NCBI GenBank assembly: GCA_963775425.1
Contig: CAVZJB010000009.1
Location: forward strand, 272,616-336,615
Source: an uncultured delta proteobacterium
Lineage (GTDB): Bacteria; Myxococcota; UBA727; VGSZ01
Length of the DNA stretch: 64,000 bases
Reading direction: 5' to 3'
Under the pieces are notes generated by a model. It saw nothing but the letters and a program-made list of their open reading frames with translations. It ran no database searches and was not told where the DNA came from. Positions within the stretch are counted from its first letter, which is position 1. Every line of letters starts with the position of its first letter. This document shows positions 12,436-63,708 of the stretch, in pieces. The position numbers and the translations under genes are program-made.

Positions 12436-14304
12436 TCACGACGTCTGTGCGCGCCCACGCGAGCGCGCCGGCGTCCGCACCGCGCGCGCCATGTTCGTGC
12501 CGTGACCGTGCGAGGGCACCTGGCCCCGTTCGCCGCGCTGCTCCTGTGCGGCTGCCCGCTCGACGTGTCCCTGCAGGGGAAGCCGTGCGACGCCGGCCAC
12601 GCCTGCGCCGGCGGCTTCCGCCTGGCGCCGTAGGGTCACGCGCGGCCGGCGAGGACGTCCTTGTGGTCGGCGCGCAGGCGCTGCTTGAGGAACTTGCCGG
12701 TGGAGGTGCGCGGGATTCTGATCGACGAAGACGTAGGCGTCGGGGAGCCAGAACCTGGCGAACTTGCCGTCGAGGTGCGCGGTGAGCTCTTTGTCGGTGA
12801 CGGTCTGTCCCTGCCTCACGACGATGGCTGCGACGGGCCGCTCGTCCCACTTGGCGTGCGGCGCGCCGAACACCGCCGCCTCGAGGACGGCCGGGTGCGC
12901 CATCAGCGCGTTTTCGAGCGCGACGGAGCTGATCCACTCGCCGCCGGACTTGATGACGTCCTTGCTGCGGTCGGTGATGTGCATGTAGCCCTCGGGCGTG
13001 ATGGTGACGACGTCACCCGTCTTGAACCACCCGTCCTTGGTGAAGCGGTCCTTGCCTTCGTCCGCCATGTAGCTGGCGGCGACCCACGGCCCGCGCACCT
13101 CGAGCTCGCCCATGGCCTTGCCGTCCCACGGCAGCACGGTGCCGGCGTCGTCGACGTGGCGCATCTCCACGAGCGGCGCGGGCACGCCCTGCGACGCGCG
13201 CGCCGCGAGCACCGCCTCCGGCCCGCGCTTACGCACCGCAGGCGTGACGCGGGCGAGCGTCCCGAGGGGGTTCATCTCGGTCATGCCCCAGGCGTGCGTG
13301 ACCTCGATGTCGTGGCGCTCGAGGAAGCCCTGGATGAGCGACGCCGGCGCCGCAGAGCCGCCGATGATCATGCTGCGGATGGCGGAGAGGTCCCACTGCT
13401 TGGGCGCGGCGTCGAGCTTGTCGAGGATGGCGAGCCAGATGGTGGGCACGCCGCCGGCGAGCGTGACCTTCTCCTTGGCCATCAGGTCGAGGAGCGACAC
13501 GGCGTCGAGGTGGGGCCCGGGGAAGATGAGGCTTGCGCCGTTCAGGAACGCGGCCCAGGGCAGGCCCCACGCCGCGGCGTGGAACATGGGGACCACGGGG
13601 AGGACGACGTCGCTGCTGCCGACGCCGATCATGTCGCGCATGGACACGGCCATGGTGTGCAGCATCACCGAGCGGTGCGTGTAGACGACGCCCTTGGGGT
13701 TGCCGGTGGTGCCGGACGTGTAACAGATCATCGCCGCCGTCTTCTCGTCGATGTCGACCGCGAAGGGCGAGCCCGCCGGCGGCGACGTGCCGGTGGCGTG
13801 CGCCGACGCCTGCTGCGCCTCGAGGAGCGCTTCGTAGTCGTGCGCGCCTTCGGGGACGGGGCCGCCGTCGTCGCGGACCACGATGACGTGGCGGACGCTC
13901 TTGCAGCGCGCGCGAAACTTCTCCCACAGCGGCCACAGCGTGCGGTCGACGACGACGACGCTGTCCTGCGCGTGATCGACGATGTACGTGAGCTCGTCGG
14001 GGTGAAGGCGCAGGTTGAGGGTGTGGACCACCGCGCCCATCGCGGGGACGCCGAGGTACACCTCGAGGTGCTCGCGGTGGTTCCAGCACAGCGTGGCCAC
14101 ACGGTCGCCTTGCTTGACGCCGAGGGCCGCGAGCGCGCGGGCGCAGCGCTCGGCGCGGGTGTACGTGTCGGCGAAGCTCTGGCGCACGACGGACTTGTCC
14201 GGGCGCCGGCTCACGACCTCTGCGTCGCCGAAGAGCGCGCGCCCGCGCTCCAGGAGGTGACCGAGGCTCAGCGGGAAGTCCATCATGCGGTCGTCGAGGT
14301 TCAT
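12436..14304 (-). CDS. Medium/long-chain fatty-acid--CoA ligase (AMP-dependent synthetase), frameshifted near the 3' end; authentic stop predicted at 12636-12638
   Basis: YTSGTTGNPKG AMP-binding motif. After ...DAYVFVDQ the frame degenerates. Removing one A/T at about 12715-12717 restores ...IPRTSTGKFLKQRLRADHKDVLAGRA*. Confidence 0.75.
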   Translation of the reverse strand: MNLDDRMMDFPLSLGHLLERGRALFGDAEVVSRRPDKSVVRQSFADTYTRAERCARALAALGVKQGDRVATLCWNHREHLEVYLGVPAMGAVVHTLNLRLHPDELTYIVDHAQDSVVVVDRTLWPLWEKFRARCKSVRHVIVVRDDGGPVPEGAHDYEALLEAQQASAHATGTSPPAGSPFAVDIDEKTAAMICYTSGTTGNPKGVVYTHRSVMLHTMAVSMRDMIGVGSSDVVLPVVPMFHAAAWGLPWAAFLNGASLIFPGPHLDAVSLLDLMAKEKVTLAGGVPTIWLAILDKLDAAPKQWDLSAIRSMIIGGSAAPASLIQGFLERHDIEVTHAWGMTEMNPLGTLARVTPAVRKRGPEAVLAARASQGVPAPLVEMRHVDDAGTVLPWDGKAMGELEVRGPWVAASYMADEGKDRFTKDGWFKTGDVVTITPEGYMHITDRSKDVIKSGGEWISSVALENALMAHPAVLEAAVFGAPHAKWDERPVAAIVVRQGQTVTDKELTAHLDGKFARFWLPDAYVFVDQNPAHLHRQVPQAAPARRPQGRPRRPRVTLRRQAEAAGAGVAGVARLPLQGHVERAAAQEQRGERGQVPSHGHGTNMARAVRTPARSRGRAQTS

Positions 14305-14482
14305 GGCGGCGCTTTTACTGCGATTCGCACGGCGTGACGACCGGCTGCTGCGGCGCCGGCGCGCGAGGCATGAGCGAGAAGGCGCTGTGCGAAATCGCCG
14401 GCTGTCTCACGACGATGAGGTGGGTTTCTGCGTGCTACTGCCGAGATGAACGACCGCGCGCATCGCGCGCCACGAGGATTCG

Positions 14483-15691
14483 ATGGCAGCACGCTTTTTC
14501 CCGCTCCGTCCCGTTGTTGTCACCCTCGCCGCAAGCTTCGTGGCAGCCGCGTGCGCCCCCGACAGCGCCGCGCGCCCGCCGGCCAAGGGCACGCACCCCG
14601 CCGGCGAGGGTGACGTCGCCGGCGAAGGGGAGGGCGAGAGCGCCGAAGGAGAGGGTGAGAGCGCCGGCGAAGGCGAGGGCGAAGGGGACGTCACCGGCGA
14701 GGGCGAGGGCGAAGGGGACGTCACCGGCGAGGGCGAGGGCGAGGGCGAGGGCGAGGGCGAGGGCGAAGGGGACGTCGGCGCCGAGGTCTGGCGGCCGTTC
14801 TCCGACGCGAGCCCGTGGAACACGCCCATCCCCGCGAACGCGGCGGTGGATCCGGACAGCGCCGCGCTCGTCGACGACTTCATGCACAGCTCGCCCTTCG
14901 GCGTGCACCTCGACATCAACATCACCGGCTTCTCCATCCCGCTGTTCTTCGCGGACGGCAGCACGCCGCAGGTCCCCATCGTCGCGGGCATCGGCGGCGA
15001 GGGCTGGGGCGCAGGCGGCTTCAACGCCTCCCTCGCCATGCCGTTGCCGCCGGGCGCCGCGCCCGATCCGCAGTCGGACCACCACATCTCCGTCGTCGAC
15101 CGCGCGCTGGGGATCGAGTGGGGCTGCTGGGACACGCACCTGGACACCCAGAGCGCGGGCCTGTGCGCCACCACCGATCTCAACGGCGACGGCGTGCGAC
15201 CGCTCGCCGCGGTGGCGAACCCGTGGTGGGACGCGCACGGCGCGCGTGCGTGCGGCTTCCCCCTCGTCGCCGGGCTCATCCGCCCCGAAGAGATCGCCGC
15301 CGGTCACATCCGCCACGCGCTCGTCGTCGCGTACCCGCACATCCGCGCGGGCTTCTACACGCCGCCGGCGTCGACGGCGCAGGCGCGCGTGGGAAGCAAC
15401 TCCATCAGCACGCGCGGCATCCCCTGCGGCGGCCGCATCCAGCTCGACCCGGGCTTCGACGTCGAGCACGCCAACGTCAGCCCCGCCGGCAAGGTCGTCC
15501 TGCGCGCGCTGCAGGAGTACGGCGCGTACGTCGGCGACTACTCCGGCGCCCTCGACCTCTACGCGGACGGCGCCCCCGACGCGCAGGCCGCCTGGAACGG
15601 CGTGCTCGACAGCGGCGCGCTCGGCAACCTCGACATGACGAACCTGCGCGTGATCCAGCTCGGCCAGTTGTTCGACAACGGCAACGGCTGA
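14483..15691 (+). CDS. Secreted/lipoprotein with long GEGEGE acidic linker and C-terminal domain of unknown function
   Basis: Signal peptide. GAGG RBS 9 nt upstream of ATG 14483. (GEGEGD) low-complexity tract. Confidence 0.55.
   Translation: MAARFFPLRPVVVTLAASFVAAACAPDSAARPPAKGTHPAGEGDVAGEGEGESAEGEGESAGEGEGEGDVTGEGEGEGDVTGEGEGEGEGEGEGEGDVGAEVWRPFSDASPWNTPIPANAAVDPDSAALVDDFMHSSPFGVHLDINITGFSIPLFFADGSTPQVPIVAGIGGEGWGAGGFNASLAMPLPPGAAPDPQSDHHISVVDRALGIEWGCWDTHLDTQSAGLCATTDLNGDGVRPLAAVANPWWDAHGARACGFPLVAGLIRPEEIAAGHIRHALVVAYPHIRAGFYTPPASTAQARVGSNSISTRGIPCGGRIQLDPGFDVEHANVSPAGKVVLRALQEYGAYVGDYSGALDLYADGAPDAQAAWNGVLDSGALGNLDMTNLRVIQLGQLFDNGNG
14601..14775 (+). repeat. Coding microsatellite: (ggcgag)n with a 30-nt tandem duplication, encoding the GEGEGE linker
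   Basis: Direct reading: the 30-mer gggcgagggcgaaggggacgtcaccggcga occurs twice (14671-14730), followed by ggcgag repeats. Confidence 0.6.
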
Positions 15692-62645: not shown

Positions 62646-62828
62646 GGCGGGGCTCCTTCTTTCTGCTGAGCATTTCGTTCGTGTGTGCTCACGGAGAGGT
62701 TCGTCACGGCGCGGGCCCTGATTAAGATCTGCGTCGCCGGATCAACCCGCGCGGACGAATTCGCCGCACAAAAGAGCGCAAGGACGGAGCGAGCCCCGTC
62801 CTCATCACCGCGGCGCGGACCCGCGGGG

Positions 62829-63708
62829 TCACAGCTTGTCGAGGATGGTGAGCTGGAAGCTCTTGGCGCTCACGGTCAGCGCGGCGTCGAGCGAGCGCTC
62901 GGCGAACGCGAGAATCCGTCGCCGCCTTCGCGATGTCGGCGTCGGTCAGGCCGGCGCGCCTGCCGTCGGCCGCGTCCGCCACGTCGCCCGCGGCGGTCTG
63001 CGCGGCGTCCAGGCCGAGCTCGATGCCGCCGGCGTCGGCGCGGCCGGCGCCGACCTGCGCGATGCCCGAGCGCAGCGTGTCGATGCTCGCGCGCAGCCCC
63101 GTGGTGTCGTTGGTGGACAGCGCGGTGGCCAGGTCGCCGAGGGCCTGGAGGACGTCGACGCCGCCGCCGGCGCCCTTGATGACGACGTCGGCGCGCACGG
63201 ACACGCCCTGCACCACGCCGGGCGCGACCTCGATCTGCCGGACGCCGGCGTCGCCGGTGTAGCTGCCGTCGGCCTGGAACGGGGCCGCGTTGTCGACGGT
63301 GCCGCCCATGACGAAGCGGCCGCCGACGTCGATGTTCAACGCGCTCACGGCTTCGGCCAGCATCTGCGTCGCCTGGCTCGCGGCGCTCGCGCGATCCGCG
63401 CTGTTGTAGGTGCCGTTCGACATCTGGATCGCGAGCTGCTGCGCGCGCGAGAGCGTGTTGATCACCGACGACAGCGCGCCGTCGGCGGCGTTGACGTCGT
63501 CAAGCGCCCGTGACGTCGTGGTCGAGATGCCCGAAGCGCGCACCGCGGCGAAGCGCTCGCGCGCGATCTGCCCCGCGGAGTCCGTCTCCCAGGGGTGCCG
63601 CACGGAGACGCCGGTGGAGGCGCGGTCGGTGGCCTTCTCGTAGCGCTCGCGCGCGGTCTGCGTCGCGGCGTTCGCGTTGGCGAAGATGGAGCTATCAGTG
63701 ACGCGCAC
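62829..63708 (-). CDS. flgL: Flagellar hook-associated protein 3 FlgL, frameshifted near the 3' end in this sequence
   Basis: N-terminal STGVSVRHPWETD motif. After ...DADIAKAATD the frame degenerates. Deleting one A/T at about 62907 (GAGAATCC) restores ...LAFAERSLDAALTVSAKSFQLTILDKL*. Confidence 0.65.

Follow-up and report, generated by a model that had tools for sequence, protein, structure and literature searches.

Methylation-linked, motif-specific errors persist in assemblies made from nanopore reads alone, and GATC is among the motifs affected (PMC11610603). Such errors, described at Dam (GATC), Dcm (CCWGG) and other restriction-modification motifs, keep returning at a single short motif, are left in place by assembly and polishing, do not depend on homopolymers and sit at the modified base (PMC11610603). 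In the current study we analysed a 64,000-nucleotide (nt) stretch of contig CAVZJB010000009.1 from an uncultured bacterium, hereafter the window, in which four genes (a fadD-like long-chain acyl-CoA ligase, a small GIY-YIG nuclease, sbcC and flgL) are each put out of frame by one extra A/T. The lesion is the same at all four sites, AGATC having become AGAATC, and we infer that its origin is most likely technical, an artefact of some kind arising in the consensus, in basecalling or in polishing. The four lesions resemble the nanopore errors in the respects listed above, but differ from them in kind and in frequency: the errors described in that paper are mainly substitutions and affect many instances of a motif, whereas those found here are +1 insertions at ~3% of AGATC sites.

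Three other described systems offer a comparison. Open reading frames (ORFs) fragmented by indels are familiar from long-read genomes and metagenome-assembled genomes, where conserved genes are split, the calls become chimeric or truncated and the shifted frame takes up the coding signal. The window presents the same picture, with the deposited products P0001 (622 versus 555 amino acids, aa) and P0391 as examples. However, long homopolymers dominate the usual long-read indels, whereas none of the 101 G/C runs is affected here, and four of the 5-6 lesions have one pentamer in common. Programmed +1 frameshifting of the prfB/RF2 type likewise involves a +1 shift, and three of our sites carry a common short sense sequence; unlike that system, no slippery codon pair, stimulatory Shine-Dalgarno sequence or stop in frame was identified here, homologues do not share the frameshift and at one site the motif is carried by the other strand. 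In phase-variable contingency loci, too, a one-base change in length throws a gene out of frame, but there the change arises by slipped-strand mispairing in a homopolymer or simple-sequence tract, whereas here one A is doubled outside any such tract.

The window has a G+C content of 72.5% and holds ~52 genes, which were delimited with a hidden Markov model of codon-position GC and ORF scoring, and annotated with Pfam. The four affected genes, all on the minus strand, and their insertion sites are as follows.

12636-14304, minus strand: fadD-like long-chain acyl-CoA ligase gene, 555 aa after removal of one base
12714-12719: insertion site 1 (fadD-like), GATTCT on the plus strand with TT at 12716-12717; AGAATC on the sense strand
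23681-23987, minus strand: small GIY-YIG (UPF0213/YhbQ-like) nuclease gene, assigned by Pfam and structure alignments
23922-23927: insertion site 2 (GIY-YIG), AGAATC on the plus strand with AA at 23924-23925
24057-27687, minus strand: sbcC, 1209 aa when repaired, assigned by homologue alignments
27622-27627: insertion site 3 (sbcC), AGAATC on the plus strand with AA at 27624-27625
62829-63708, minus strand: flgL (hook-associated protein 3), 292 aa when repaired, starting directly after the flgK stop
62911-62916: insertion site 4 (flgL), AGAATC on the plus strand with AA at 62913-62914

All four +1 frameshifts are present in the deposited sequence, and deletion of one base per site gives uninterrupted proteins of 555, ~102-118, 1209 and 292 aa, respectively. 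With a slash marking the break, the sense strand of site 1 reads GAT CAG A/ATC CCG, and deletion of the extra base restores CAG-ATC and with it GATC. Site 2 reads AAC GAT T/CTC GAC, the repaired GAT CTC yielding ...GVTNDLDKRLATHN...; the start of this gene is probably the GTG at 23987, with a TTG at 24023 as the alternative. Site 3 reads GTC GAT T/CTC GCG and gives V-D-L-A once repaired, in a gene whose GTG start overlaps the sbcD stop as GTGA. Site 4 reads ACG GAT T/CTC GCG, and the repaired product ends ...DIAKAATDLAFAERSLDAAL...LDKL*. The initial annotation had reported the four extra-A/T frameshifts in these same genes, and the sequence confirms them; its positions needed small corrections, and the flgL site, placed at 62906-62908, was ~7 nt off, the true site lying beyond the end (62910) of the interval that had been given.

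The flgL gene belongs to a flagellar late-gene cluster on the minus strand (59693-64000) that comprises the 3' end of flgK, flgL, flagellin, fliD, fliS and a small unknown ORF. The cluster is found in a contig whose other genes look Myxococcota-like, and the Myxococcota lineage is classically gliding and non-flagellated.

The claim that removal of one base restores canonical proteins is borne out by Pfam domains, structures and homologues, with FlgL as the weakest case. In FadD, the Pfam AMP-binding_C domain (residues 463-537) runs over the junction at residue 530, and 12 homologues align without a gap through it (...VFVDQIPRTSTGKFLK...). The deposited product P0001 (622 aa, ORF 12436-14304) is a chimera: it matches the repaired FadD at 100% identity along 96% of the latter's length and parts from the homologues exactly after ...VDQ. 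In the GIY-YIG protein the Pfam domain (residues 19-89) runs over the junction at residue 38, and the structures 1zg2 and 1ywl align gap-free over the ...TNDLDKRL... junction. Escherichia coli SbcC (6s6v) aligns gap-free over repaired residues 2-65, the junction at residue 21 included, and the four closest homologues read V/I/L-D-L-A/R there. For FlgL, flagellin alignments reach or cross the ...DADIAKAATDL... junction at E values of ~0.7-0.8.

At the DNA level, support for the restored GATC comes from two of the sites, fadD and sbcC. A 73%-identical relative (L024) has CAG ATC CCG CGC where the window has CAG AAT CCC GCG, and another relative (L025, 89% nucleotide identity over the aligned sbcC 5' stretch) is exactly one base shorter at the sbcC site. 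At the GIY-YIG and flgL sites, the restoration of GATC is suggested by the expected Leu residue, or residue preference, and by parsimony. We also considered an alternative repair, in which the C of GATTCTC is deleted to give GATTTC (Phe) and no GATC is restored. It was rejected for sbcC, where Asp-Leu is present in the four closest homologues and is encoded by GAC CTC in L025. It is disfavoured for fadD, where it needs a rare CAA codon and the relatives read CAG ATC or CAG ATT, and for GIY-YIG and flgL, where the structural homologues have Val, Pro or Leu at this position, not Phe.

The hexamer AGAATC (GATTCT) occurs four times in the 64 kb, exactly at the four frameshift sites, next to 305 intact GATC sites and 147 intact AGATC (both strands counted) that fall at 129 of these GATC sites. 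If the insertions are modelled as duplications of randomly chosen isolated A/T bases, the probability that all four fall in GATC is 4.7e-6, that all four fall at the A of AGATC is 1.7e-8, and that at least four of six lesions fall in GATC is ~7e-5. The non-random placement at GATC asserted by the initial annotation is thus upheld; its motif was nevertheless too wide, as the lesions do lie within GATC but not in any GATC, the true common motif being AGATC, which becomes AGAATC. Given GATC, all four sites have a 5' A with p ~0.03, and given AGAT, all four then have C with p ~0.14 (147 of the 243 AGAT sites are AGATC); the minimal common motif is therefore AGATC, each flank having only modest support. 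No longer or bipartite motif around the four sites (RGATCY, BglII-like or Type I-like) fits all of them. In every case it is the A of the AGATC strand that is doubled; this is the sense strand in fadD and the antisense strand in GIY-YIG, sbcC and flgL. This difference in strand among the genes indicates that the process acts on duplex DNA or on reads, and not on mRNA.

The four sites are not the only frameshifts in the window. Tabulation of the whole window adds one clear and one probable case, both away from GATC, so that frame breaks total 4-6 among the ~52 genes.

34248-35135, plus strand: DUF4215 (cysteine-rich repeat) lipoprotein gene, 1-nt deletion at ~34713-34715, no GATC nearby
20125-21158, minus strand: orphan membrane-anchored protein gene, probable 1-nt deletion at ~21095-21125

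The junction in the DUF4215 gene reads CDDG/AC/GGC GAC GCC GGC GAC GGC TGC, CDDG and GDGC being 11 nt apart instead of the 12 that the repeat requires, and BLASTP alignments to the homologues P0166 and P0121 cross it as CDDGNGDAGDGC. The missing base can be placed in more than one way (AAC, ACC or ACG+G). The third repeat of this protein is without its CGDG...E half and the fourth is without 'DG' (CDDANAAAG--CDAGC); no stop occurs in any plus-strand frame of the gene before 35133, and further indels or a collapsed repeat are possible. In the orphan gene, a GTG overlapping the stop of the gene upstream (GTGA, 21155-21158) begins a frame that has G/C at 16 of 19 third positions. This frame leads into a transmembrane segment and a body that lie in another frame, without a canonical start before 21036, so that a 1-nt deletion is probable from the sequence. 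The deposited 303-aa call for this gene, P0391 (20125-21036), begins downstream of the membrane anchor and is thus truncated at its N-terminus; a search of 5.8 billion proteins returned no homologue other than this call itself. None of the 101 G/C runs of at least 5 nt in the window lies at a frame change.

Three further suspicions were examined and rejected. At 11152-12372 the gene starts normally, with a GTG at 12372, the start of fliS is normal, and ARD (mtnD) gives no sign of an N-terminal shift. The methionine-salvage genes mtnB (class II aldolase) and mtnD (ARD) lie on the minus strand at 3131-4242; homology to solved ARD structures suggests that mtnD starts at 3625, in which case it would share ~66 nt with the 3' end of mtnB, and the alternative start at 3562 would cost ~20 N-terminal residues.

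Our results allow us to propose how the four insertions came about. The true sequence at each site would be AGATC, and the spurious second A that makes it AGAATC would stem from an assembly that is error-prone and probably based on long reads from an uncultured Myxococcota-like bacterium. The frame after every lesion is open and shows full third-position GC periodicity, over 1189 downstream codons in the case of sbcC, and none of the four genes carries a second lesion or shows the decay seen in genuine pseudogenes. Since 4-6 of the ~52 genes carry a single lesion with the coding signal intact downstream, consensus error is indicated rather than mutation, and the additional single-base indels elsewhere show the consensus of this contig to be error-prone. 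The proposal of a systematic artefact made in the initial annotation is upheld to this extent: the motif and the kind of lesion are the same at all sites, each gene has one lesion, lesions are more frequent than real pseudogenes should be and the coding signal downstream is intact. The source of the window also agrees with such an origin. The 394-kb contig has a single NCBI/ENA record, and the best relatives of the window proteins are found in metagenome-assembled genomes of Myxococcota and "Deltaproteobacteria" at 65-79% amino-acid identity. A scan of the GTDB species representatives with a neighbouring 511-aa protein gave a best identity of 65% and no synteny, and a search of 5.8 billion proteins with FadD found no other sequence more than 74% identical. 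That the contig is recorded once, has no relative closer than 65-79% and is missing among the GTDB species representatives is in keeping with a metagenome assembled from long reads.

Within the artefact, we give about half of the weight to a modification as the trigger and the rest to a k-mer bias that is independent of modification. The most likely putative trigger would be a modified G(m6A)TC (m6A, N6-methyladenine) that disturbs the signal within AGATC, since the adenine that is doubled is the methylation target of Dam-type enzymes; the error would then be context-specific and of low penetrance, at ~3% of AGATC sites. Several observations weigh against the proposed error or its trigger. Penetrance is low, with insertions at four of 151 AGATC sites; 26 CGAGATC[CG] and six CAGATCC sites are intact, as are sites with the same 9-10-mer as an affected one (e.g. 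GTCGAGATCG and GCGAGATCG), and the error is therefore not deterministic. The expectation of a systematic error holds in that the error is motif-specific; it does not hold for every site, the insertion being stochastic. The absence of frameshifts from G/C runs is atypical for generic long-read noise. With regard to methylation, a Pfam scan found no DNA methyltransferase among the ~52 window genes, and GATC occurs at the expected frequency (observed/expected 0.93), which is uninformative. In addition, GATC errors for R10.4.1 are reported to be mainly substitutions, C-to-T and G-to-A (PMC11610603), and literature searches for a GATC to GAATC error found no description of one, nor of +1 insertions.

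The alternatives differ in how much of this evidence they can accommodate. A purely technical bias of the basecaller or polisher, which lengthens a single A after AG at the k-mer (C/G)AGAT(C) whatever the modification state, is a possible explanation that we hold only tentatively. It would account for the weak support for the final C of the motif, for the low and stochastic penetrance and for the lack of a methyltransferase gene in the window, and the fifth frameshift, in the DUF4215 gene, could be a contraction of AAC to AC and so another miscounted A run; the missing base of that lesion is, however, ambiguous, as noted above. Against a bias of this kind, none of the 88 AGATG sites is affected, all four lesions restore GATC, and the duplicated base is exactly the target adenine of Dam. 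That the four cases are generic random indels which met GATC by chance has next to no probability: other indels in the window do fall away from GATC, but all four of these have the same base inserted in the same pentamer, and the chance values (~7e-5 for at least four of six in GATC, ~2e-8 for four of four at the A of AGATC) lead us to reject it.

The same specificity, far beyond chance, would also be expected if the insertions were genuine recent mutations, produced by a process in the cell that targets GATC or AGATC and adds one A:T pair; error-prone repair of Dam-type sites that are nicked or modified would be an example. The public record contains the extra bases (P0001 being the frameshifted product), no strictly essential gene is among the four, and a penetrance of four in 151 is what a mutational hotspot would give. 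We nevertheless consider this origin unlikely. It implies that ~10% of the genes were freshly broken, with four identical events and no secondary lesion, and with further single-base indels elsewhere in the 64 kb. The relatives are intact at the fadD and sbcC sites. Fill-in at symmetric restriction cuts is established restriction-enzyme chemistry, but fill-in of symmetric GATC cuts should duplicate two or four bases, not one, and we know of no mutational mechanism that adds a single A inside GATC. The strongest form of the idea, an undescribed motif-targeted +1 insertion hotspot at AGATC that has recently knocked out sbcC, flgL, the fadD-like ligase and the GIY-YIG nuclease, is very unlikely. 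Programmed +1 ribosomal frameshifting would instead make full-length proteins from the sequence as written, and the sense octamer GAT TCT CG, common to three sites in the same codon register, might be taken to favour it. This agreement in register arises because GAT-CTC (Asp-Leu) is the usual in-frame reading of GATCTC. At fadD, strand and register of the motif both differ from those at the other three sites, by which programmed frameshifting is effectively refuted. Moreover, decoding rules imply that tRNA-Asp on GAU cannot re-pair on AUU, which leaves no slippery re-pairing; the site is followed neither by a stop nor by a rare 'hungry' codon; and the FadD, SbcC and GIY-YIG homologues examined are encoded in a single frame, as are the closest fadD and sbcC relatives at the DNA level. 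We give this explanation virtually no credence.

Biologically very little follows from the insertions, as the organism almost certainly has intact fadD-like, GIY-YIG, sbcC and flgL genes, and their main use is as a flag for data quality. Roughly 10% of the genes in the public contig are mis-encoded, and broken products have already entered public protein collections: P0001, in which FadD is extended by 91 residues read out of frame and into the next intergenic region, and P0391. The AGATC to AGAATC signature provides a simple, reference-free screen for such errors, in which AGAATC hexamers are sought at frame breaks, and AGATC is a specific context for re-polishing. Should the methylation trigger be correct, the error pattern itself would reveal GATC methylation in an uncultured lineage.

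The window has further features of its own. A purine/urate catabolism cluster (33803-40495) encodes 5-hydroxyisourate hydrolase, a 506-aa fusion of allantoicase and OHCU decarboxylase, an amidohydrolase, a SCO1/SenC protein and a membrane urate oxidase that combines a Urate_ox_N domain with a C-terminal CarboxypepD_reg domain. The stretch 41933-52202 may be a small biosynthetic locus; it contains a gene for a 1457-aa formyltransferase / AMP-binding / PP-binding / thioesterase protein, similar to non-ribosomal peptide synthetases, which adjoins an asparagine synthase gene; its further genes encode a GNAT acetyltransferase, an iron-containing redox enzyme (Haem_oxygenas_2), a DUF3419-type methyltransferase and an ABC transporter. 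On the minus strand, an N-terminal fragment of an IS5-type transposase (DUF772; 15562-16125) lies inside a 724-nt stretch (15689-16412) that is without the third-position GC bias of the genome, and which we read as a mobile-element remnant of foreign composition. Across the window CTAG is nearly absent, with 3 observed and 43.5 expected from trinucleotides, and AATT is ~6-fold over-represented (17 versus 2.9), four GAATTC sites included.

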